A stretch of DNA of 64,000 nucleotides from an uncultured Acidobacteriota bacterium (GTDB lineage: Bacteria; Acidobacteriota; Vicinamibacteria; Vicinamibacterales; 2-12-FULL-66-21). The position numbers and the translations under genes are program-made. Within the stretch, counting starts at the first letter, position 1. Each line of letters opens with the position of its first letter. Below the pieces are notes generated by a model. It worked only from the letters and a program-made list of their open reading frames with translations. It searched no databases and was not told where the DNA came from. Where the stretch lies: contig CAVRYF010000001.1 in NCBI GenBank assembly GCA_963725325.1, positions 171,723-235,722 of the forward strand, in the 5' to 3' direction. Of this stretch, positions 3,925-57,509 are shown one piece after another.

Positions 3925-4127
3925 CGTCTGTCTCCTTGTTTGAGCCGACCCCTGTTGGCGTCTCATCGATACGACGAACGAGCTTGCTGGAAATCGACAT
4001 CGTTCTGCAAATTCTGCTCGACGTTCGAGGCGCGCGGGAGGAACGGCCGCTTTTCCCTATGGACCGACGTCCGTTGACGTTAGCGTCGCTGCCGGGATCG
4101 ACTGCCAGGCGGAGCCTGAGTATGACC

Positions 4128-7100
4128 TCAGAACATCTGGCCGATTGAAAAGTGCCAGCGGACCCCGGTCTCGCCGAAGCTGCGCGGAAACCCGAGATCG
4201 ATGCGAATTGGCGCCAGGGGCGTCTTGATGCGAAGCCCGAATCCGAGTCCCACACCGAGCTCGTTCAACCGGATCGGCTGCGCGTTGGTGAACGTGTTCC
4301 CCGCATCGGCGAAGAGCACGCCGCTCAACCGCCAGAAGAGCGGCGCGCGGAGCTCGGCGTTACCCACGAACAGCTTCGTGCCTCCGAGTGGCGCGTCGAA
4401 GAACGAGTAGGCTGACAGCGCGTCTTGCGAATAGCCGCGCACGCTCTCCGTTCCGCCGGCATTGAAGAAGAGATCGAAAATCGTCAGCGTCAGCGGGCCG
4501 CCGAGCGGCTCCAGCTGGCCCCAGCGCACGTTGCCGGCCAGGACGACGGGACCGAGCGGCTGGTAATAGGACCCACGAATCAACATGCGCAGGTAATCGA
4601 CATCCGATCCGAACTCCCGCTGTCCCCACTGGAGGCTCACCGATCCGAACCAGCCGCGCTTGGCGTCGAAGAAGCTGTCCCGACGGTCGATGACCGCGGC
4701 ACCGTTCAGCGACGCCAGGATCCCGTTGAAGCCGAGGGTCTCCTCCCCGGTGGCATGCGACAAACGCACGTCGCGCCAGTCGTGGCTGTAGCCCCACGAG
4801 TACTCCACCGCGCGGCTCACCCGCCAGCGCTGCTCCATCGTCAGGTTGACCTCGTCTTCTCGCGCGGTGAGCTGCTCGTCCTGGTGTTCCTCGCCGCGCC
4901 CCGTCAGGAACAGGTTGGTTCGTATCGGGCGGCGCTGCAGCGTTGGCACCGAGAAGAGCGCTCGCGCGCTGCGCAGGTCTGGCTCGTACCGCAGACCCCC
5001 TCCGAGCGACATCCCTCGGCCGAGGAAGTTGCGGTCGCGGATATCCGCCGCAACGCCGAGCGCGTCGGTGCGTTGATCGAGCGCCGAGGTGTACTCCGAC
5101 GACAGCTCGAGCCCGTAACGCAACTGGAAGCGACGAGTCTCCTCGAGCGAGATCGTGGCCTTGACCGGAAGAGTCCCCTGGACCGGCCCAGGCGCAGGAA
5201 TCGGCTCGAGTCGAACTTCCGCGCGCCGGAAGGTCCCGAGCTGGTACAGCCGCTTCTCGGTTGCGGCGACGGCGGCCGCGCCGGCGGGTTGGCCCGGCGT
5301 CAGCTGAACGGCCTTGCTGACGAGCGACGGCCTGGTCGACTGCAAGCCCTCGATCTCGACGGAGCTGATCACGTGGAGCGGCCCCTCGTTCACCGCGAAC
5401 GTGAGCGCCATGTCCATTCCCTGCGACGCGGCGGTCGCCGTCGTCTCCACCTGCAGGTCGCGAAATCCGAGGTCGCGGTAGTAACGCTCCAGCCGCGCAC
5501 GTCCGGATCGATCCGCCCCGGCGGCAAATGGTGACCCCACGGCAAGGGCGATCGCCTCGAGCGCTCCAGCCCGCCGCTCGGGCGCAACGCCCGTCAGCTG
5601 GACTGCCGCCACCTGCGCCGCCCGCCCCTCGTCGATCCGAATCGGCAACGTCGCGGCGTCGTCCGCGAACTCGATTGGCCCGATGGTGACGCGCGCCGCG
5701 AGGTAGCCCTTCGCAGCGTATGCCTCGCGGATCGCCGCGATCAGCGGCCCCGGATCCGTCCACGCGTTGGCATCGAGTCGACCCGACGCTGTGAGCTCCT
5801 GCAACGTCTGAGTCGCGAGCACCTCGTTGCCTCGGAACGCAAGCTGGCGGGAGCCCGTGCGGCGGCCGGGATCGATGCGGACGCGTGCGCGCTCGGTGTC
5901 GCGGTCGGGGCGATCGACCTCGACCTCGATCCGGGCGCGGAGGAACCCGGCATCGATGAGATGATCGCGGGTTGCCTTGGTGAGCCTGTCGTCCAGCAGG
6001 TCGAGCACCACGTTTTCGGACCACGTCTGCCGAAGGCGATTGAGGAGATCGTCACCGCCCTCGTATCCAGTGACTTCGAGCACCGTTCGTCGTCCCCGCG
6101 CGATGCGGTACTGGAGATCGACGGGACGTTCCTTGCCTGTGCTCTCGGCCGTTGTGCGCATCGGAACGACTCGCGCGGTGTAGTACTCCCTGTCCCGGTA
6201 GAACCGCTCGATGCGATCGCGATCCTCCAGCCATGCTCGGAACTCGAAGCGGTGGCCCTGTCGGAGCTTGGTACCCGCCAGCACCTGCTCGGCGCTGTAG
6301 CCGGGATCGCCAGCGAGTGCCACTGCGCGCACCTTGTCCTCGACGACACTGGCGGCGCGGGCGCGGGGGCGCGGGGAGACACCGGGGCCGAAGGTAATCT
6401 CCTGACGGAACTCGAACGCCTCCTTGGTGTTCTCCTCCGACGACACACGGAACTCGTAACCGCTGACCGGGCGGTAGATGATGATCCAGGTGGACTCGTT
6501 CTCCTCGAGGTTTTCCGAGAACACGAGCTCGAACTTCGTACGCACCCGCTTCGACACCGTCAGGCGAGTGGCCGGGTCGACGTCGCTCGACACGAGGTCG
6601 AGGTCTTCAGTGCCAACGCTCACCGTATCGAGCCCGACGAACTGCCCGGCGACCCCAAGCACGTCGCCTGACACCGCGCCGACGGCGAAGGTATTGCTGT
6701 CGGTCGTTCCCCTCGCCGGATCCGCAATCTGGCCCGTGACGAGCAGGGAGCGTACGTCCCGCTCGCTCAGCGGCGGATCGGACGAGAAGTTCGTTTCAAT
6801 CTGGTCGGCTCGTCCGCTCATTCGCACGGTGACGAGGTACGAGCTGACGTGCGCCTCGCCGATGAGGTTCAGGCGTGGCAGAAGCCCCGTCGCTGGCGAA
6901 AACTCGAGCCGACTCTCCGTCAGTCGGTACGAGCGCCCTCCCATGCGAATCCGTCCGTCGTCCTGGATCGTCACCTGCCCGTCGAGCGCCGGGCGGCCGA
7001 CCGTGCCCGTGACGCGCACGTCGGGTACCAGTTCGACATTCAGCACGCTCTGATCGACGACGATGGGACCAACTGAGTTGAGGCGGATGTCGAGGGCCGT

Positions 7101-10100
7101 AGCCGCAATCCACGGTGCCACCGACCGCGGTGGCGCACCGCCAGGTGTGACAGCGGAGATCGCCGACGCAAGCGCAGTGATCGGTTCCCGATAGCTGTCC
7201 GAGGCGATCGTGATCTGACCGGACAGGCGTGACCCCGATGCGGCGTTCTCCCATGTGAGGCGCGTGTCGAGCTGACTGCGCAGCCCCTTGGGGACCTCGA
7301 CGAACAAACCGCGCGCTTCGACATGCAAGGGACGCGGCGCGACCGTGCCGGCGAAAATCGGAACCGCTCCTTCGATCGTGATGTCGCCGCCGTTCAACTG
7401 TGCCTTGAGCCCGCGGGTGTCGAGGACACCAGCCTCGAGCGTCAGCGGCCCCGAGAGGCCCGCGAGTGCCAGCTGCCAGTCCGGCTCGACGATGTTGACG
7501 TCGTGCAAGTCGATTTTCGCGGACGCGCGGCGCGCTCCGGGTGGCCCCGCAACACGAACCTGGAAGGTGGCCTCGCCACCGATTCCCGTGGCCATCATGC
7601 GGAGAAGCCCCAACGCGGTGCTCCCTTCAGCCCGAACCTCTCCTTCGGTGCCTGGCAGAAGGCCGATAGCGCCCGAGGCCGTGAGGAACGAGCGAGGTCC
7701 CTTCCAGTCGAGTGCCCCGACTTCCAGCCGCCCGCGATCGAATCGCAGCCTCGTCGGTACCTGCTGGGTCAGGCCGACATCGTCGACCGAGACCTGGGCA
7801 GCCTCGAAGGTGACCGTGGCCACGACATCGTCCAGTCGCGGCTCGGTCGCGTGGGCTTCAAGAGCGACCTTCGCGGTCCCCGTTATGTTCGTGTTCTTGA
7901 TGCCGAGCGCTTGAAGCGCCGGGACGAGCATTGCATCCGCTCGCGCCGTCACTGTTGCTTCGGTCGGTGAGATGTTTCCAGGAGCGGGCGGGCCGTCCGC
8001 CAGCCATGCGGGGACAGCCCAGCCGAGAGGCATTCGCGCCCTGGCGCTGAATGGTGCCCCGAGAACAACGCCATCGTCGACTGAGAACTCAATGGCACTC
8101 CCTCGAATGCGGGTCTGCAGGTGGACGCCACGTGCGAGCTCGCCTTCGGCGCGCATCAGCCGGTCAATCGTCGCGTCGGCATCGCCGGCGATCGCGAAGC
8201 GGTCCCCATCCTGGTCCAGCGAGACCTGCGCACGAACCGGTCCCTCCACCAGCCACGGCGTGATGAGCATGCTGGGTGGGAGGAAGGCGATCCCGTCCTC
8301 GATGCGGCCTTCGAGCGTGACCAGGACGCCGCTCTCGCGCTCGCGGACACGCGCGAGCCCCATCGAGAACCCCCCCAGCGTGATGCGGAGTGGCGCCTCC
8401 AGAGTTGGCCGACGCCCATCGAACCTGATTCGTCCTGGCTGAAGGAGGCGAAGCGGCCTGCCCCGAAGTTGTCCCTCGATCTCCGGGACGGTAACGACTC
8501 CGGTAGATTCGAGCGGCCGAGTGAGCTGACCTTTGACATCCGCAGATGCGGTGACCGTTGCGGAGGTGTCGGGCAGGGCAATCGTCCTACCCCACAGCGC
8601 CACGAGCGATGTCAGCTGGCTCCTGCGAAGGGTTGCGCGGGCCTCGAAAGGCCACTCCGGCTCGAAACCAATGCGGCCGCTGATTTCAGCGCTCAAGGTC
8701 GGCAGCCGGAAATCGAACCGGACTGCCGCGTCGGCACTGCCGGCGGTCAACTCGACTCGCCCGAGCGTGCGACCGTCGATGGCGACGTCGCCAGCAACCA
8801 TCGAGAACGTTCCCGTCGGTTGTCTGGGCGAGCCGGCGACATCGAATTCGACGGCGGCGTCACCGAGGTGTAGAGCCTCCGCCGCGGGCGGCGCCGCTGA
8901 CGGTGGAGACCTAGTGCCAGTGACAGTCCGCAATGACAGCGCGAGCTTCTCCCCGCGTCCGGAGATCCGCATGCGCCCCAGGCGGCGATCGATGCCGGCT
9001 TCGAGCCGGAGCCATCCGTCGCCACGATTCAGGCGAAGTCCGGTCACATTCAGGACGCCTTGCGCGAAAGTGACGTCCCCGTCGAGCGAGTCGATGGCGA
9101 TTCCGTTCGCATCGAGGCCGGAACCTGAGATTCGCGCCGCCAGCCGCGGATCGGCCGTCGATCCGTCCAGCGTCCCTGAGATAACGAGCGACCCTGATGG
9201 CCGCCACTCGGCCGGGAGCGCAGCAGCGAGGACCTCTGGCCTGTCGAGTCGGGCGTCCACGGCGAGATGGATCGGACCGTTGCCGGCCGTCGCCGTCCCG
9301 TGTACGTCGACTCGATTGCCGGAACCTTCGGCCGTCATCCGGGTGATCTCGACCGCTCGGCCCTGGAGGCGCACCTGCGCTTCGCCGCGGACCTGCTCTA
9401 TTCCCCCCAGTGCGAGCGAGTCCGCGGTGAGCCTTGCCTCGAGCCGTGGCGAGGCCAGCGTCCCAGTGAGCGTCGCATCCGCTGTCGCCCGCCCTGCTTG
9501 CAGCACCGCCGCGAGATCGGCCGGCAGGAATCCGTTCCGCTGCAGATCTCGCATCGCATCCTTTACGTTCGCGGACTGGGCGCCGAAGCGACCGGTCAGG
9601 GTCGATTGCGCCAAGCGCGCGCGATCGAGGACGACCGAGATGTCGGCGGCCACGCTCGTGTCGCCTTCGAGCGCGCCGCGGGAGTGCACGCGCCAACGCC
9701 CCCGTTCACCAGTGGCATCGACCGTCGCGATCGTGGCGCGCGGCGCCGCGACATTCAGGACGGCCATCTGGATGCGGCCGCTGAGTGACTCAGGGCCGGG
9801 CACCGACCCGGGCCACATGAGGTCGGCCGCGAGCGTCAGTGGCGCGGCGGGCAGCGCGGACGCCCTGGCCACAGGGGCAAGGCGGCTGGCATTCTCTACG
9901 GTCGCCGCAGCGCGCAGAGAGCTGGAGCCTTCGTGGTCACCGATAACCAGACGCGCGGCCCCGTTCAGATTCGCACCCAGCGCGCGGCTCGAAGCGGTGT
10001 ACCGATCGATCGTCAGATCCGTACCCGACCAGCGGCCGCCCGCCGACACGCTGGCGTCCGTGACCTCCTGCCATTGAAGGCGTCTGACGCGGCCATCGAA

Positions 10101-11012
10101 GCTTCCGACGGGATGTTCGAGCGTCCCGCCGACGGTGCCTGACGCCTCAAGGTCGCCCTCGAGCGGAGGCAACTCCTTCGACCATTTATTGAGCTCGCCG
10201 AGCGCGACCCGCGCGTCGTACTTCACCTCGAGATCGCCGCGGCTCACGTCGAGGTGAGCGGTCCCGCCGATCGCCGCCACCGGCGACTCCATCGTGATCG
10301 ACGTGAGGGCCAGCGACGTTCCGTTGAGTGACACGTCCGCCCGCGCCCGATCGAAGCCAATCTCCGCCGTTCCGCGCCGGACCGACCACCCGCCCGACAC
10401 GACGACCGCTCCCCGCACGACTCCTGGGCCTTCGCCGGTGAACGACAGCGAGAGCCCGCGAACAGAGACGTGCGTGCCGCTTAAACTGACAGACGTGACC
10501 GCGAGATCGCGAACCCGCCCGTCCTTGATGTCGAATGCGGGAACGGTTGAGGAGGATCGTGCGTGAGCCTGCCTCTCGCGGTCAGCCGCCGGAACCGGGG
10601 ACGCACCTCGCGTTGTGGAGTCGAGCACGACTTCGGGCTTGGTGACGTCGAGCCGGCGGAGCACCAGGGTTCCGCGGAGAATAGCGGGGGAAAAGTCGAC
10701 TTCTACGCGTTCCGCCTTGAGGAACGGATGCGCCGCGGTGGATTGCCTGATGTTGACGGCGCGCAACGTCACGCCGAGCGAACTGGGCCGGTAGTCGAGA
10801 CCGGCGGCGCGCGCCTCGATCCCAAGACGATCGAGAAGCGACGCAGACAGGGTGCGGAGCACGAGCGCCTTGCCCGCCGAAGAGGCAAGGAAGAGGGCAC
10901 CGCCGGCCAAGACCACCAGCAGCAGCAGGACGAGAACGATCGCCGGGCGCACCATCGCCCTGAGTCGACGCGCGATGAAGTGGCGAGTCTGCGGTTCCGA
11001 AGATGCTTGCAC
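4128..11012 (-). CDS. Giant envelope protein: TamB/AsmA-like (DUF490) region fused in-frame to a POTRA + Omp85 (BamA/TamA-family) beta-barrel
   Basis: Single 2294-aa ORF.
- N-terminal signal-anchor: MVRPAIVLVLLLLVVLAGGALFLA.
- TamB C-terminal type sequence: NFSSDPPLSERDVRSLLVTGQ ... YEFRVSSEENTKEAFEFRQEITFG, ending at nt ~6387.
- POTRA-like repeats follow, then an Omp85 barrel with FNAGGTESVRGY and terminal WHFSIGQMF. Confidence 0.85.
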   Translation of the reverse strand: MQASSEPQTRHFIARRLRAMVRPAIVLVLLLLVVLAGGALFLASSAGKALVLRTLSASLLDRLGIEARAAGLDYRPSSLGVTLRAVNIRQSTAAHPFLKAERVEVDFSPAILRGTLVLRRLDVTKPEVVLDSTTRGASPVPAADRERQAHARSSSTVPAFDIKDGRVRDLAVTSVSLSGTHVSVRGLSLSFTGEGPGVVRGAVVVSGGWSVRRGTAEIGFDRARADVSLNGTSLALTSITMESPVAAIGGTAHLDVSRGDLEVKYDARVALGELNKWSKELPPLEGDLEASGTVGGTLEHPVGSFDGRVRRLQWQEVTDASVSAGGRWSGTDLTIDRYTASSRALGANLNGAARLVIGDHEGSSSLRAAATVENASRLAPVARASALPAAPLTLAADLMWPGSVPGPESLSGRIQMAVLNVAAPRATIATVDATGERGRWRVHSRGALEGDTSVAADISVVLDRARLAQSTLTGRFGAQSANVKDAMRDLQRNGFLPADLAAVLQAGRATADATLTGTLASPRLEARLTADSLALGGIEQVRGEAQVRLQGRAVEITRMTAEGSGNRVDVHGTATAGNGPIHLAVDARLDRPEVLAAALPAEWRPSGSLVISGTLDGSTADPRLAARISGSGLDANGIAIDSLDGDVTFAQGVLNVTGLRLNRGDGWLRLEAGIDRRLGRMRISGRGEKLALSLRTVTGTRSPPSAAPPAAEALHLGDAAVEFDVAGSPRQPTGTFSMVAGDVAIDGRTLGRVELTAGSADAAVRFDFRLPTLSAEISGRIGFEPEWPFEARATLRRSQLTSLVALWGRTIALPDTSATVTASADVKGQLTRPLESTGVVTVPEIEGQLRGRPLRLLQPGRIRFDGRRPTLEAPLRITLGGFSMGLARVRERESGVLVTLEGRIEDGIAFLPPSMLITPWLVEGPVRAQVSLDQDGDRFAIAGDADATIDRLMRAEGELARGVHLQTRIRGSAIEFSVDDGVVLGAPFSARARMPLGWAVPAWLADGPPAPGNISPTEATVTARADAMLVPALQALGIKNTNITGTAKVALEAHATEPRLDDVVATVTFEAAQVSVDDVGLTQQVPTRLRFDRGRLEVGALDWKGPRSFLTASGAIGLLPGTEGEVRAEGSTALGLLRMMATGIGGEATFQVRVAGPPGARRASAKIDLHDVNIVEPDWQLALAGLSGPLTLEAGVLDTRGLKAQLNGGDITIEGAVPIFAGTVAPRPLHVEARGLFVEVPKGLRSQLDTRLTWENAASGSRLSGQITIASDSYREPITALASAISAVTPGGAPPRSVAPWIAATALDIRLNSVGPIVVDQSVLNVELVPDVRVTGTVGRPALDGQVTIQDDGRIRMGGRSYRLTESRLEFSPATGLLPRLNLIGEAHVSSYLVTVRMSGRADQIETNFSSDPPLSERDVRSLLVTGQIADPARGTTDSNTFAVGAVSGDVLGVAGQFVGLDTVSVGTEDLDLVSSDVDPATRLTVSKRVRTKFELVFSENLEENESTWIIIYRPVSGYEFRVSSEENTKEAFEFRQEITFGPGVSPRPRARAASVVEDKVRAVALAGDPGYSAEQVLAGTKLRQGHRFEFRAWLEDRDRIERFYRDREYYTARVVPMRTTAESTGKERPVDLQYRIARGRRTVLEVTGYEGGDDLLNRLRQTWSENVVLDLLDDRLTKATRDHLIDAGFLRARIEVEVDRPDRDTERARVRIDPGRRTGSRQLAFRGNEVLATQTLQELTASGRLDANAWTDPGPLIAAIREAYAAKGYLAARVTIGPIEFADDAATLPIRIDEGRAAQVAAVQLTGVAPERRAGALEAIALAVGSPFAAGADRSGRARLERYYRDLGFRDLQVETTATAASQGMDMALTFAVNEGPLHVISSVEIEGLQSTRPSLVSKAVQLTPGQPAGAAAVAATEKRLYQLGTFRRAEVRLEPIPAPGPVQGTLPVKATISLEETRRFQLRYGLELSSEYTSALDQRTDALGVAADIRDRNFLGRGMSLGGGLRYEPDLRSARALFSVPTLQRRPIRTNLFLTGRGEEHQDEQLTAREDEVNLTMEQRWRVSRAVEYSWGYSHDWRDVRLSHATGEETLGFNGILASLNGAAVIDRRDSFFDAKRGWFGSVSLQWGQREFGSDVDYLRMLIRGSYYQPLGPVVLAGNVRWGQLEPLGGPLTLTIFDLFFNAGGTESVRGYSQDALSAYSFFDAPLGGTKLFVGNAELRAPLFWRLSGVLFADAGNTFTNAQPIRLNELGVGLGFGLRIKTPLAPIRIDLGFPRSFGETGVRWHFSIGQMF

Positions 11013-42077: not shown

Positions 42078-42529
42078 CACGACTCGTGCCACGCGTGCCA
42101 TTCCACGAGACCTTCGTCGGGGCGCGGCTCACCCTCGAGCATCGCGATGTATTCCAAGAGGTGACCATCGGGGTCGAGGAAATACACGGCCACCGCCGGC
42201 ATCCAGGCGAGCACGATCGGTTCAGCTGTTGGTCGCCCATTGAAGTCGAGAGCAACGATGCCTGCTGACTGAAGTCTCTGCGGAGCTCTAAGGACATCCT
42301 CAGCGGTTGTGGCAAAGGCAATGTGCGTGGTCGTTTTCTGAGGACCTGCGCCGGCTTGCCAGAGCCCCAGCATCGAGTCGCCTCGCGCACCGACCCAGAA
42401 AAACGCGGCTCGACGCGCCGGTACCACGTGCGCCAGCTCGAGTCCGAGACGGTCCCGATAAAACGTGATTGACATCTCGAGGTCGGCGACGATCAGGTGC
42501 GCCTCGAACAATCGGTCGATCGATGTCAT
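42077..42529 (-). CDS. VOC/glyoxalase-family protein
   Basis: MTSIDRLFEAHLIVADLEMSITFYRDRLGLEL...HIAFA...VYFLDPDGHLLEY. ATG 42529 overlaps the DoxX stop. Confidence 0.75.
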   Translation of the reverse strand: MTSIDRLFEAHLIVADLEMSITFYRDRLGLELAHVVPARRAAFFWVGARGDSMLGLWQAGAGPQKTTTHIAFATTAEDVLRAPQRLQSAGIVALDFNGRPTAEPIVLAWMPAVAVYFLDPDGHLLEYIAMLEGEPRPDEGLVEWHAWHES

Positions 42530-51716: not shown

Positions 51717-52809
51717 GTGACACTGACAGCGAACAGTGCAGATCTCTACACTCCGTATTCCCTCGGATCTCTTCGCCTCCCGAATCGCTTCGTCATGGCA
51801 CCGATGACGCGGAATCGCGCGGGGACGGGCAACGTGCCAACCGCGGTCGTCGCTCGCTACTATGAGCAGCGCGCCTCGGCGGGCCTCCTGGTGACCGAGG
51901 CAACGCAGGTCGCTCCGGAGGGTGTGGGATATCCCAACACTCCCGGCATCCACAGCATCGAGCAGGTGGCCGGCTGGCGACGCGTCACTGACGCGATCCA
52001 CCGGGCGGGCGGACGAATCTGTTCTCCAGCTCTGGCACGTAGGCCGTATCTCGCATCGACTCTTTCAACCGGGCGGCCGCTTACCGGTTGCCCCGTCCGC
52101 CGTAGCGCCGGCGGGTCAGGTGTACACCGTGAAAGGGATGATGCCGTTCGAGACTCCGCGCGCTCTGACGTCCGACGAGATCCCGGGAATCGTCGAGCAG
52201 TTCCGCCTCGGAGCCGCCAACGCTCTGAAGGCAGGATTCGACGGAGTCGAGATCCATGCCGCGAATGGGTACTTGCCCGACCAGTTTCTTCGCGATGGAA
52301 CCAACCGACGGACCGACGCGTACGGCGGTTCGGTCCAGAATCGCGCGCGGTTCCTGCTGGACATTGTCCGATCGGTGATCGGTGTCTGGGGTCCCGACCG
52401 CGTTGGCGTTCGACTGTCACCGGGCGGTACGTTTAACGATATGACGGACTCGGACCCGCTGAAAACATTCGGCTATGTGATCGGCGAACTCGACCAGCTG
52501 GGCATCGTGTATGTTCACCTGGTCGAGGCGAGCGAAGACGACATTCGCCACGGCGGCTCGACGGTTCCCACCGATCGTCTGCGCCCGTTGTTCCGACGGA
52601 CGCTGATCGTGAATGGTGGATACGATCGACAGCGTGCCGATGCTGTCATCAGAAGCGGCGTTGCCGATCTGGTCTCATTCGGCAAAGCGTTCCTGGCTAA
52701 CCCGGACCTGCCGCAACGGTTGAAGATCGGCGCAGCCCTCAACGTGCCGGATCCTGACACCTTTTACGGTGGAGGAGAGAAAGGGTACGTCGACTATTCG
52801 GCGTTGTGA
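51717..52809 (+). CDS. Old Yellow Enzyme-family NADH:flavin oxidoreductase, frameshifted at ~52020
   Basis: LRLPNRFVMAPMTRNRA...LLVTEATQV...AIHRAGGRI | (F)LQLWHVGR...GFDGVEIHAANGYLPDQFL...RTDAYGGS. Removing the g in atctGttctccag restores I-F-L-Q. Confidence 0.8.
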
Positions 52810-53222: not shown

Positions 53223-54305
53223 GTGATGTGCCACTCGTGCCGCCGCGCACCAGGCGTTTTCGTTCTCGCTCTTGCCCTGCTCGCCATCGGCGCCGGTCAG
53301 GCTCCTCCCCAGTCCGGCAATCCGGCCGCGAAGGTGGACGTGGAACGCGTGGGCCCGCAGGTCGGTACGGGATTGCCCGATTTCAGCCTTCGCGATCAGC
53401 ATGGCGACGTTCATTCCATGAAGTCGCTGCTGGGCCCGAAGGGCGCGCTGATCGTCTTTTTCCGCTCGGCCGATTGGTGACCGTACTGCAAGACGCAGCT
53501 CGTGGAGCTGCAAGGCCGTCTCACGGAGATTCGCAAAGCCGGAATGGGCCTCGCGGCGATCAGCTACGACCCTGTGCCGGTGTTGGCCGATTTTTCTGCG
53601 CGGCGTGGCATTACGTTCCCGCTGCTCTCCGACCCGGCGTCGGCGACGATCAAACGGTACGGCCTCCTGAATACAACGATTGATCCCACGAACGCGTTGT
53701 ACGGGTATCCGTTCCCCGGCACATTCCTCGTCGACCGGCAGGGCGTCGTCACGTCTCGAGTCTTCGAGGAGGCCTACCAGGAGCGCGATACGGTCTCGAG
53801 CATCCTGGTGCGACTGGGCCAGCGGGTCGACGTGCACGCGACGACAATCGCAGGCGCCCATGTGACGGTGACGTCCTACGCGACCGACGACGTCGCCGCG
53901 CAAGGCACCCATTTCTCGCTCGTGCTGGATGTCACACCTGGACCGCGGGTGCATGTCTATGCGCCGGGCGCGAGCGACTACAAGTCGGTCGCGATCAGCG
54001 TGCAGCCACGACCCGGCCTCGTCGTGAAAGCGCCGCGGTATCCCAAGTCCGAGGATTACTTCTTCAAACCGCTGAAGGAGCACGTCCCCGTGTACCAACA
54101 CCCGTTTCGGATCGTGCAGGACGTGACGCTCGATCCCTCCCGGGATGGGACCGTGGCGCTGAAAGATGTCACGAGTCTGACGATCACCGGCCGATTCGAC
54201 TATCAGGCCTGCGACGACAAGGTCTGCTTCACGCCGCAATCAGTGCCGCTCACGTGGACCATTGGTGTGAAGCCGCTCGATCGTGAACGCCCGAAGCAGG
54301 ACTGA
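53223..54305 (+). CDS. Secreted redoxin (AhpC/TSA-thioredoxin-like) + DsbD-N-like domain protein with in-frame TGA at the first redox Cys (candidate selenoprotein, U-P-Y-C)
   Basis: ORFs 53223..53480 and 53502..54305 share a frame and are separated only by TGA 53478..53480. Read-through gives LIVFFRSADW-TGA-PYCKTQLVELQ. The C-terminus has FDYQACDDKVCFTPQ. Confidence 0.6.
53495..53511 (+). promoter_or_regulatory. Candidate bacterial SECIS hairpin
   Basis: gcagctc-gtg-gagctgc is a perfect 7-bp stem starting 14 nt after the TGA. Confidence 0.45.
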
Positions 54306-54337
54306 ACAGTCGAGGCATCCAAGAACGGAGGGAGGCC

Positions 54338-54808
54338 ATGTCTGCGGTCGCGTACACCTCGAAGATACGCCTCGAGCGACGCAAGGGACCCTTGCGGATT
54401 GCGCACCTGCCGGGTGAAGCGCAGCCTGTCACGTTCAGTGTTCACGGCGCCATCGCTCAACACTACAAAATCGATCCGTCGAGCCTGACCGAATCGCACG
54501 CCGCGACGATCGACTATGTGATCGCGGCCACGGCCGGTTGAATGCTCGGCACCTTTGGAGGCGCGCTGGAGGCGCGCCAGATCGACGCGAGCGGCGGGCG
54601 CCTGACCGCGGATGTGACCGGCGAAGTGGAAACCGAGGATGGCGTCCTGGTCATTCGCCGGATTCATGTCGCGATGCTGCTGAAAGCACCGGACGTGATG
54701 CGGGCAACCGTCGACCGAGTCCACAGCATGTACCCGATGCGCTGTCCGCTGTACCGCACACTGCACCAGGCCATCGCGCTCTCCTCATCGTTCGAGCTGA
54801 CGTCATGA
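54338..54808 (+). CDS. OsmC/Ohr-family peroxiredoxin-like protein with in-frame TGA at the first conserved Cys (candidate selenoprotein)
   Basis: ORFs 54338..54541 and 54542..54808 are contiguous and in frame. Read-through gives DYVIAATAG-TGA-MLGTFGGALEA...MYPMRCPLYRTL, so the second conserved Cys-Pro is present. Confidence 0.6.
54560..54578 (+). promoter_or_regulatory. Candidate bacterial SECIS hairpin
   Basis: ggcgcgc-tggag-gcgcgcc is a perfect 7-bp stem starting 18 nt after the TGA. Confidence 0.45.
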
Positions 54809-54857: not shown

Positions 54858-55253
54858 GTGGCCTGGACGGCCTGCGAACACGAACGTACCGATATCTATG
54901 CCGCCACGAGCGAAGACGGCGCCGTGCAATTTGGCGCGCCGGTCCGTGTAAACGATGTTGAGGGCGAGGCACACGTGTACGGTGAAGATCCGCCGCGTGT
55001 GGCCATCGTCCCGAGCGCGGCACACTCGCAGGCAGTTCTTCCCGAGACCGTCGTGATCTGGCCGTCCGACCGGACAAAGCACCTCGGGTTGCGATCGGCG
55101 CGCTCGCTCGATGGTGGCCGGACGTTTTTCCCGTCAACGTCGGTCGGTGACGAGGCGATCGCCGCCGAGCGAGGATTCCAGTCTGTGACAGTCGGCCCCG
55201 ATCGAGTCGTGCACGCCGCATGGCTCGATGGCCGACCCGGGTTCGTTGAATAG
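54858..55253 (+). pseudogene. Fragment of a BNR/sialidase-like repeat protein (both ends missing)
   Basis: VAWTACEHERTDIYAATSEDGAVQFGAPVRVND...SARSLDGGRTFF...VHAAWLDGR. There is no signal peptide, and the ORF is bounded by stops. Confidence 0.4.
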
Positions 55254-55308: not shown

Positions 55309-56800
55309 TCATCGGTCTTGAGGCACTGTTGTGGCTGGCGGACTTGAGCCGTCGGGCTCGTTTGCCTCTTCGTTGCGCGCGGCGCGGCCGAATTGGTGGA
55401 CCCGTTCGGTCAGACTGCCTTTGCGGATGCGCACGGATTCACGGGTGACGTCGCCGATCGCGCCGCCAAGCTCCACGTCGAGCCCAGCCGATTTCGAGAG
55501 GCCAATCTTCTGACTGGCGTAGACGCTGCGGTGCCCGACCATCAGGAAGGCTGTTGAGGCCGCCAACGCCGCATACACACCCTCAGGACCGGGCAACAGT
55601 TCCATGGCCATCACGGCGGCGGCGATTGGCGTGTTCGCAGCAGCGGCGAGCATCGCCACGAGCCCCACGGCACCCAGGAACGTGGTCGGCATGCCGAACA
55701 CGGGCGCCAACGCAGCACCACTGGTGGCGCCCACGAAGAAAATCGGCGTCACGATGCCGCCGCTGCCGCCTGTTTCGAGCGTGATCGAGGTCGCCAGGAT
55801 CTTGAGCAGAAAAGCGCCGGCGAACACGGGCGTCGTCCCCGCCAGCACACCGTTGATCGTGTCAGTCCCGAGACCGGCATAGGCGTCACCGGCCGCCATA
55901 TACAAGAGCACCAAGGCCACGCCGCCCGCGGCCGACAGCAGGTACGGCCGGCGTTCGAAGCGACGCAGTGCGCGCTCGAAGAAACGGAGCGACTCGATGA
56001 GCAGCAACGCGATCAGGCCGAACAGCGCTCCACACACCAGCATGATCAGGATGGTTTTCACCTGGCGCGTATCGGCGAAGGGCTGTCTGCAACGACGGAA
56101 ACGGAGGCCGCACGCCGCAGACGAGATGCGCGACGATGCCGGCCACCAGCGCGGGAAAGATCACCGTGTAATCGATCCGTCCGAGATAGAGCACTTCGAT
56201 CCCGAAGAGCGCTCCGGAGACAGGCGTGCCGAACACCGCCGCGAAACCGGCGCTGATCCCGCAAATCACCAGCCGCCGCCGGTCCTCGTCGCGAAGGCGC
56301 AGGATGTCGGCGAACAGACTCGTCAGGGCGGCGCCAATCTGCGCGGCCGGCCCCTCCTTGCCGACGGAGCCGCCAAACGCCAGCGTTACAACTGTTGCGC
56401 TCAGCTTCACGGGCGCGACGAGCCAATCGACGCGACCGGCCCGCTGGTGCACGGCGGCGATGACCGCCTCCGTGCCGTGGCCGCGCGCATCGGCGGCGAA
56501 CGTGCGAATGATCCAGACGCAGATCGGAAGCGCGACCGGCAGAAAGATGAAGACGGGAACGCGACCGGGCGTGAGCGCACGCGCCCAGTCAGCTGAGCGG
56601 GCGAGAGCCCAGAGAAACACGCGCGTGCCAAGACCGACGCAGATGCCTGCCGCCGCACCGAGCATCGCCCATTTGAGCGTGCTGATGAGCAGCGCCGTAT
56701 GCTCGGTGTACCAGCGAGTCTCGTCGGCGAGACGAGGAGACTCGTCGCGGGAGACCAAGCCGCGGAGCCGAGCCAATCGTTGTCGAAAGGTAGAGGACAT
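55309..56800 (-). CDS. ClC-family voltage-gated chloride channel, frameshift near 56060-56100
   Basis: ATG 56800: MSSTFRQRL...GGSVGKEGPAAQIGAAL...GTPVSGALFGIEV. The sequence continues in ORF 55309..56061 (…TGGSGGIVTPIFFVGATSG…AAVMAMEL). Confidence 0.8.
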
Positions 56801-57020
56801 CCGCTTCGTTAAGCCTATCCGAAGAGCCTCGGAGCAGGCGAAACGACGACGCCGGGGTGGTGCAGACCAAACTCCCGAGCGAGCTTCACGCGCTCGAGGA
56901 ACCACTGCTTTGGGTGGGGACGCGAGGTCATCCCTCACCAGTAGCAGGTTGACAGCGGTCCACGCGACGTGTAACTGTTTTGTTACGCATTTCAACGCGG
57001 GACCGCTCAAAGGAGGGCGC

Positions 57021-57509
57021 ATGACCAACGTTCCAGGCATTCTTGTCGTACGGAGATCCATTCACATTGCAGCATCGCCCGATCAGGTATGGAACGAGTT
57101 CGCCAGCTTCGAGCGGATGACGCAATGGTGGGGCGTGGTGATCGGCGCACCACGTGCGGGCACTCCTAACGGTCAGCGACTCCTGACGTACGAGCCGCGG
57201 CTGGGCGGCCGAATCGAAATGGAGGTGGAGCTGAATGGGTCGCCACTCCGGTACGGAGGAACGATCGTGACGCTGGACCCAGGGCGAGAACTGACCTTTG
57301 AGTGTGACTGGATTCCGAATCGGGGGTGGTTGCTGCCAACGCTTCTCACGATCCGGCTGACGCCCGCGTTGAGCGGCACTCTTGTCGAGTTGCTCCACCA
57401 CGGTTTTGAGCGAACTGGGGTCAGCGGCGCCGCCGACCATGCAGGGTACGAGGGCGGTTGGGGAATGACGCAATTGATGGCTCTGCGAGAGCTGGTGAAG
57501 GCGGCGTGA
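57021..57509 (+). CDS. SRPBCC (AHSA1/START-like) family protein
   Basis: AGGAGG then ATG 57021: MTNVPGILVVRRSIHIAASPDQVWNEFASFERMTQWW. Only the last third of track ORF 56226..57509 is genuine. Confidence 0.7.
   Translation: MTNVPGILVVRRSIHIAASPDQVWNEFASFERMTQWWGVVIGAPRAGTPNGQRLLTYEPRLGGRIEMEVELNGSPLRYGGTIVTLDPGRELTFECDWIPNRGWLLPTLLTIRLTPALSGTLVELLHHGFERTGVSGAADHAGYEGGWGMTQLMALRELVKAA

Follow-up and report, generated by a model that had tools for sequence, protein, structure and literature searches.

A predicted selenocysteine codon in an OsmC-like gene of an uncultured Acidobacteriota bacterium, adjoining a second candidate selenoprotein gene

Analysis of a 64,000-nucleotide stretch of DNA from an uncultured Acidobacteriota bacterium of the order Vicinamibacterales (GenBank assembly GCA_963725325.1, contig CAVRYF010000001.1, positions 171,723 to 235,722; hereafter "the window") reveals a gene at 54338..54808 (+ strand), related to the OsmC and Ohr hydroperoxide reductases, with an in-frame TGA at 54539..54541 (+). 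We consider it highly probable that this UGA is decoded as selenocysteine (Sec), which would occupy the peroxidatic position, residue 68 (U68), of the predicted product. The assignment draws on the conservation of the TGA among relatives, purifying selection on both halves of the gene, selection at the RNA level on a hairpin downstream of the codon, the OsmC fold of the product, the alignment of U68 with a redox cysteine, and the linkage of the gene to a sel operon in a related genome. A neighbouring redoxin gene shows a similar arrangement.

The two open reading frames (ORFs) at 54338..54541 and 54542..54808 had been described in the original prediction as contiguous and in frame, and translation bears this out: they form one reading frame that is open from the internal TGA to the stop codon TGA at 54806..54808, and we found no further stops or frameshifts inside the gene. 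The read-through product of 156 codons, counting the UGA, has the sequence ...IDYVIAATAG-U-MLGTFGGAL...RCPLYRTL (around U68: ...AATAG-U-MLGTFGGALEAR). The true start codon, ATG at 54338, is preceded by the Shine-Dalgarno-like sequence GGAGGGAGG (54327..54335, +). The second residue of interest, the predicted resolving cysteine Cys136, is encoded by the TGT codon at 54743..54745 (+) and belongs to a C-P dipeptide that is invariant in 157 genes. UGA also serves as an ordinary stop in the source genome: the redoxin, the OsmC-like and the msrP genes all terminate with TGA, hence the genetic code is not reassigned. A six-frame scan of the window for TGAs in coding-like surroundings returned only two credible sites, those in the OsmC-like and redoxin genes; in-frame TGAs at 42266 (+), 32273 (-) and 50879 (+) were rejected as recoding sites.

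A protein search identified 4779 relatives, many of which are 88-residue C-terminal halves. Among the 171 relatives surveyed first at the DNA level, 165 have TGA at the column of interest, four have a Cys codon (TGT in L005; TGC in L166, L167 and L171) and two have a genuine TGG (L001/L002). The TGA is present in all 80 of the best species-representative genome loci, whose proteins are 66-84% identical to that of the window and which derive nearly exclusively from metagenome-assembled genomes (MAGs) of Acidobacteriota (Vicinamibacterales, Acidoferrales/Acidiferrales, Terriglobales, Bryobacteraceae and Sulfotelmatobacter), as well as in all 79 metagenome loci of a sister clade, found with proteins carrying W or C at this position as queries. 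It is also retained in independent assemblies of the same gene. Acidobacterial-type genes were likewise seen in MAGs labelled Verrucomicrobiia, Dormiibacterota, Bifidobacteriaceae or Acidimicrobiia (L036, L051, L073, L077, L079), labels that reflect either mis-binning or horizontal transfer.

When relatives were compared with the window sequence, the ratio of nonsynonymous to synonymous substitution rates (dN/dS) was 0.05-0.35 in the N-terminal and 0.11-0.31 in the C-terminal half; both halves of the gene are thus under purifying selection in one frame. The original view that random decay could hardly account for the UGA is upheld by this selection, together with the presence of TGA in 165 relatives. 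Variants found later carry TCA (Ser; L179/L180) or GGA (Gly; L181), and the protein sequence P0001 has a cysteine at this column. All non-TGA codons at the column (TGG, TGY, TCA and GGA) are a single nucleotide step from TGA, which is consistent with TGA being the ancestral state of the clade. The genes with Trp, Ser or Gly look intact and most of them retain the downstream hairpin.

Most full-length homologs in the protein databases (from JGI/IMG and in some cases ENA/NCBI, e.g. P0050) exhibit "W" at this column, but the underlying DNA reads TGA. These tryptophans are an artefact of gene callers that translated TGA as Trp. The false residue occurs in proteins P0002-P0024, P0036-P0053 and others, and the corresponding loci are L086-L170. 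A history in which the family was ancestrally Trp-containing and the TGA arose from TGG by nonsense mutation was considered and rejected, as the DNA of the 79 metagenome loci and of P0050 has TGA.

For profile matching, Cys was substituted for the internal stop in the 156-residue product. Residues 58-148 match the Pfam OsmC family (PF02566) with 38.2 bits, above the gathering score of 27.5, whereas the NCBIfam OsmC model (TIGR03562) returned 16.4 bits, short of its cut-off of 85.8; this OsmC-like protein is therefore not a canonical OsmC. A phmmer search of the PDB yielded no significant sequence match. The AlphaFold model, calculated with 35 homologs, assumes the OsmC/Ohr fold with high scores (predicted local distance difference test, pLDDT, 94; predicted template modelling score, pTM, 0.87), and the top 50 matches of a Foldseek comparison with the PDB are all OsmC, Ohr or OsmC-like structures, with template modelling (TM) scores of 0.55-0.73. 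The OsmC/Ohr-like identity proposed from the sequence is thus corroborated by the Pfam score, the model and the structural matches. We predict that the gene encodes a cytoplasmic thiol-type hydroperoxide reductase of the OsmC/Ohr fold.

To place the redox residues we used an E. coli OsmC sequence identical to that of PDB entries 1qwi and 1nye. In profile-profile (hhalign) and HMM alignments the Cys136-Pro137 pair falls firmly on Cys125-Pro126 of E. coli OsmC. In a global pairwise alignment U68 occupies the column of Cys59 (VIAATAG-U vs IGAAHAA-C), and it also matches the first cysteine of Ta0195 from PDB entry 2onf (S-C-L-L-T-T-F vs G-U-M-L-G-T-F; profile E = 0.025). The spacing between the first and the second redox residue is 68 residues here and 66 in E. 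coli OsmC. The earlier reading, that the UGA takes the place of the first redox cysteine while the later C-P is kept, agrees with these alignments; the assignment of Cys136 is firm, and the replacement of the peroxidatic cysteine is supported, the N-terminal alignment being the weaker of the two but consistent with the spacing and the secondary structure. R20, E27 and D59 are invariant in the family. The catalytic triad of Ohr contains Arg and Glu, and by analogy R20 and E27 or D59 may correspond to these residues.

The original prediction had also pointed to a hairpin starting 18 nt after the UGA, and the sequence does contain it: GGCGCGC-UGGAG-GCGCGCC (54560..54578, +), a perfect 7-bp stem with arms at 54560..54566 and 54572..54578, which resembles a selenocysteine insertion sequence (SECIS). 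The conserved core comprises six base pairs (54561..54566 with 54572..54577) that enclose a loop of the form UGGAR; a G in the apical loop is the reported hallmark of bacterial SECIS elements (PMC1088965). GC-rich codons within the hairpin spell out the conserved peptide G-A-L-E-A-R, and codon usage there was tabulated for 157 unique TGA-form genes. The codons for one stem alanine (GCG) and for the leucine across the stem/loop boundary (CTG) are the same in 157/157 genes (entropy 0.0 bits each), and the other stem alanine is GCG in 155/157 (0.1 bits), whereas all remaining conserved Ala or Leu columns contain mixed codons (1.6-2.1 bits). The third positions of the hairpin Gly and Arg codons, which pair with G, are C or T only (GGY and CGY, about 0.8-1.05 bits), with alternation of G-C and G-U pairs. 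The 6-bp core is intact in 138/140 unique sequences, compared to about 5% expected from the peptide and the family's own codon usage, and when as a control the 3' partner was slid by 1-3 nt, pairing fell from 98% to 13-60%. Nucleotide identity amounts to 92% within the hairpin and to 59% in the following 195 nt, and the consensus structure calculated with RNAalifold is this very hairpin. Selection at the RNA level therefore acts on the hairpin. In two of the four Cys-forms, L167 (G-E-A-L-E-K-R) and L171 (G-G-M-L-A-A-R), the stem and the GALEAR peptide have been lost together, which suggests that in the TGA-forms it is the RNA structure that keeps the peptide invariant.

Two codon biases adjoin these elements. 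In 124/157 genes the Gly directly before the UGA (54536..54538) is encoded by GGT, a codon with a background frequency of 22%, and roughly half of the genes use CGT for the Arg of the 3' stem (54575..54577), where the background is 10%. Both point to additional preferences for sequence context around the recoding site, beyond base pairing.

Genes for the Sec machinery were found in only one of the 85 loci searched, L021, from an Acidobacteriota MAG. There the order is redoxin(U), tRNA-Sec, selD, selA, selB and the OsmC-like TGA gene, the whole stretch spanning positions 4037-10465, and the OsmC-like gene lies about 200 nt past selB. The tRNA-Sec was called by ARAGORN and scores 62.7 bits against 47 for the Rfam model RF01852; selD (338 bits), selA (456 bits) and selB (317 bits) all exceed the NCBIfam equivalog cut-offs. 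SelB is common among Acidobacteriota; homologs with an identity of at least 63% run into the thousands, and the named ones come from MAGs of Acidiferrales, Acidoferrales and Acidobacteriia. Already in 2006, Acidobacteria had been reported to possess the Sec-decoding trait (PMC1794560). The Sec machinery is thus present in the lineage and, in L021, physically linked to the OsmC-like gene. The selD ORF of L021 matches the SelD profile from position 35 onward only, and the protein may start further upstream, perhaps across a Sec/Cys codon of its own.

Several findings weigh against reading the UGA as Sec. The match of U68 to Cys59 comes from the weak 2onf profile match and the global pairwise alignment; the hhalign and hmmalign alignments with E. 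coli OsmC spanned only the C-terminal half. The folding energy of the hairpin, calculated for the single window sequence, is no better than that of dinucleotide shuffles (z = +0.16), and two of the Cys-forms (L005 and L166) carry the same hairpin, which is therefore not exclusive to the TGA-forms. Neither a tRNA-Sec nor selA, selB or selD was found within the 64-kb window. Metatranscriptome contigs cross the TGA of the neighbouring redoxin gene, but they are short and of low depth and say nothing about a continuous transcript across the OsmC-like TGA. Finally, the OsmC-like selenoprotein family predicted in 2005 was described with the motif UxxT, whereas the window protein has U-x-x-G-T. As for the hairpin, the original argument survives in part: in the window sequence by itself the hairpin counts for little, since GALEAR is conserved as a peptide and two Cys-forms have the hairpin as well, and it becomes convincing only through the comparative analysis of synonymous sites, with its frozen codons and conserved core.

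Among the alternatives to Sec, the one that fares best, though we regard it as unlikely, is that ribosomes pass the UGA without using selenium, by means of a near-cognate tRNA-Trp or of a suppressor such as an allo-tRNA; the position would then receive Trp, Ser or some other amino acid, and the role of the hairpin would be to stimulate read-through in general. It has been reported that Acidobacteria possess allo-tRNAs resembling tRNA-Sec that may function as nonsense suppressors (Mukai et al., PMC5389517), and the intact-looking variants with Trp, Ser and Gly suggest that the fold tolerates non-redox residues at this position. On the other hand, the column aligns with the catalytic cysteine of OsmC and true Cys-forms exist; the gene in L021 directly follows tRNA-Sec-selD-selA-selB, the tRNA of which passes the Rfam model for tRNA-Sec; the UGA of the neighbouring redoxin lies in a UxxC redox motif; and neither the window nor the loci of 82 relatives yielded a suppressor tRNA. 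Less probable still is the decoding of UGA as cysteine by a tRNA-Cys(UCA) that resembles tRNA-Sec, i.e. a system of the selC* type. An opal-suppressing tRNA-Cys that mimics tRNA-Sec has indeed been described and would account for the same alternation of Cys and UGA and for the hairpin, but selC* was reported in Firmicutes, Thermodesulfobacteria, Nitrospirae and Proteobacteria rather than in Acidobacteria (PMC5389517), and the tRNA gene in L021 lies beside complete selD and selA genes, which are needed only for the synthesis of Sec.

The annotation produced by gene callers implies two small proteins, one of 67 residues ending at the UGA and the other of 88 residues, translated by re-initiation at the sequence TGAATG. 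The databases hold many such 88-residue ORFs, and the codon after the TGA is ATG in 83/83 members of the sub-clade to which the window belongs. However, the sister clade has a Leu codon (CTN) at this position in 76/79 metagenome loci, where conservation nonetheless extends to the frame, the peptide and the hairpin; lacking a start codon there, the C-terminal half cannot be initiated on its own. No Shine-Dalgarno motif comparable to GGAGGGAGG precedes the ATG at 54542, the two halves form a single OsmC domain with a confident single-chain model, and either half alone would be devoid of one of the two redox residues. We therefore consider this explanation very improbable: separate or truncated products, the outcome named at the outset as one that would undermine the prediction, are contradicted by the sister-clade CTN codons and by purifying selection on both halves in one frame. 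That the gene is a pseudogene, whose TGA arose from TGG or TGC by nonsense mutation or reflects an error in sequencing, is scarcely credible, for although TGA is one step from both codons and at least one probable frameshift occurs nearby, in a gene of the Old Yellow Enzyme (OYE) family, the TGA recurs across 165 diverged sequences, which represent many species and many independent assemblies, both halves are under purifying selection and the gene is otherwise free of stops and frameshifts.

With the UGA read as Sec, the following course of events can be proposed. During translation the hairpin that begins 18 nt after the UGA, with the stem GGYGCGC/GCGCGYC and the loop UGGAR, and which sits within the sequence coding for G-A-L-E-A-R, would recruit SelB with Sec-tRNA(Sec), and the UGA would then be read as Sec68 instead of a stop. 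In the mature protein the selenolate of U68 would attack the hydroperoxide and be converted to a selenenic acid, the invariant Cys136 of the C-P dipeptide would resolve the latter to a selenenylsulfide, and a cellular thiol reductant would reduce the selenenylsulfide. In this scheme Sec insertion, the peroxidase chemistry and the nature of the reductant are inferred.

Selenoproteins of this kind are already known, and less novelty attaches to the OsmC-like gene than the original prediction implied. Zhang, Fomenko & Gladyshev predicted in 2005 an "OsmC-like protein" selenoprotein family (PF02566/COG1765, motif UxxT) on the basis of three Sargasso Sea sequences (PMC1088965), and the family is still listed in a 2026 review (PMC13188914). 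Like the proteins analyzed here, its members belong to PF02566, carry Sec in the place of the N-terminal redox Cys, have a SECIS-like hairpin downstream of the UGA whose small apical loop includes a G, and possess Cys-homologs. The motif reads U-M-L-G-T in the window and U-L-T-G-T in the sister clade, with an invariant G at position +3 and T at +4, so these sequences depart from UxxT. In contrast to the marine family, the acidobacterial clade comes from soil Acidobacteriota, is numerous and Sec-dominant (165 TGA against 4 Cys among those surveyed), and is paired with a predicted UxxC redoxin-DsbD_N selenoprotein. The Pfam family is shared, but the subfamily may differ from the one described in 2005. 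We put forward tentatively, rating its chances as slightly short of even, the proposal that these genes constitute an undescribed subfamily of the OsmC superfamily (U-x-x-G-T ... C-P), Sec-dominant, probably Sec-ancestral and largely confined to soil Acidobacteriota, which together with an exported U-x-x-C AhpC/TSA-DsbD_N protein would form a two-selenoprotein peroxide/redox module that flanks the sel operon in at least one genome, and in which the SECIS hairpin would dictate the invariant G-A-L-E-A-R peptide.

E. coli OsmC (1qwi/1nye) and Ohr (from Xylella, 1zb9, and Chromobacterium, 6ebc) are Cys-based organic hydroperoxide reductases of the same fold (Foldseek TM 0.55-0.73, probability 1.00), but the window protein is only 11-18% identical to them, has a distinct N-terminal region and is predicted to use Sec for the peroxidatic Cys. 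The best structural matches are Ta0195 (2onf) and Mycoplasma pneumoniae MPN625 (1lql), with E about 3e-07 and TM 0.68-0.76; 2onf is also the sole sequence-profile match in the PDB, and its second Cys likewise aligns with Cys136. Both are structural-genomics proteins of unknown or little-characterised function and, unlike the U68 protein, both use Cys. The hairpin in turn resembles the SECIS element of E. coli fdhF in that it lies within the coding sequence shortly 3' of the UGA and has a small apical loop with G. Counted from the U of the UGA, the loop starts at 28 nt in the OsmC-like gene and at 24 nt in the redoxin gene; in the fdhF SECIS the G/U of the loop is at about +23/24. Unlike the latter, the stem here is a plain GC helix of 6-8 bp lacking the bulged U, and binding of SelB to it is putative.

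The genes of this clade are systematically mis-annotated, either as two ORFs (67 and 88 amino acids; NCBI and ENA) or as full-length proteins with a spurious Trp in the active site (many JGI/IMG entries). With a dedicated model, hundreds to thousands of entries would be put right, and with them the false "W" consensus that now stands in the protein databases. Soil Acidobacteriota, which are dominant but poorly cultivated, appear to invest selenium in peroxide defence, which bears on the ecology of selenium in soil. The hairpin also illustrates that a SECIS element embedded in coding sequence can be demonstrated by the freezing of synonymous sites even where the fold of a single sequence is uninformative, and natural Sec- and Cys-versions of one OsmC/Ohr scaffold would make the contribution of selenium to peroxidases of this class directly testable.

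The neighbouring gene at 53223..54305 (+) encodes a redoxin with a signal peptide, an AhpC-TSA domain (Pfam, 96 bits) and a fused DsbD_N domain (27.7 bits), in which a TGA at 53478..53480 falls in the motif W-U-P-Y-C. Searching with the strict motif W-U-P-[YF]-C located the redoxin TGA in 37 loci, mostly adjoining the OsmC-like gene. A SECIS-like hairpin, GCAGCUC-GUG-GAGCUGC (53495..53511, +), begins 14 nt after the TGA and is the RNAalifold consensus of 33 unique sequences. Its stem displays compensatory changes from G-C to A-U (GCAGCU...AGCUGC to GCAACU...AGUUGC, and CAACUG...CAGUUG) as well as an outer pair converted from G-C to C-G (CCAGCU...AGCUGG), although, like that of the OsmC-like gene, it does not stand out from dinucleotide shuffles as a single sequence (z = -0.13). 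The original observation that this gene, too, has UGA at its redox Cys and a hairpin downstream is thus reinforced by the 37 loci and the compensatory changes, and the redoxin is predicted to be a second selenoprotein, decoded like the OsmC-like one. With its AhpC/TSA fold and U-x-x-C motif it resembles the UxxC selenoproteins of the Prx-like and thiol-disulfide isomerase-like groups (PMC1088965) and the NCBIfam SelL-related and PrxU families, from which it differs by the signal peptide and the C-terminal DsbD_N domain; it also remains below every NCBIfam cut-off for selenoproteins and peroxiredoxins (best 42.9 against 140 bits; SelL-related 34.5 against 120).

A cluster of selenoprotein redox genes beside msrPQ and an OYE reductase, as envisaged at first, holds: the arrangement msrP-msrQ-(short-chain dehydrogenase)-OYE-redoxin(U)-OsmC(U) recurs on near-identical contigs of other samples. 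In the window the OYE-family gene (51717..52809) is split into two frames near ~52010 by a single-base indel, while the 98%-identical contig L177 contains an intact ortholog of 363 amino acids; the split results from a genuine frameshift or from an error in the assembly. At 55309..57061 (-) we found overlapping ORFs of 391 and 250 amino acids in different frames, both of which resemble parts of one chloride channel of the ClC type, suggesting a second frameshift nearby. Synteny with contigs L172-L178 ceases right after the OsmC-like gene, where the window has an ORF of 131 amino acids (54858..55253) and the other contigs a gene for a MOSC-domain protein or a methyltransferase, which suggests a rearrangement hotspot or strain variation.

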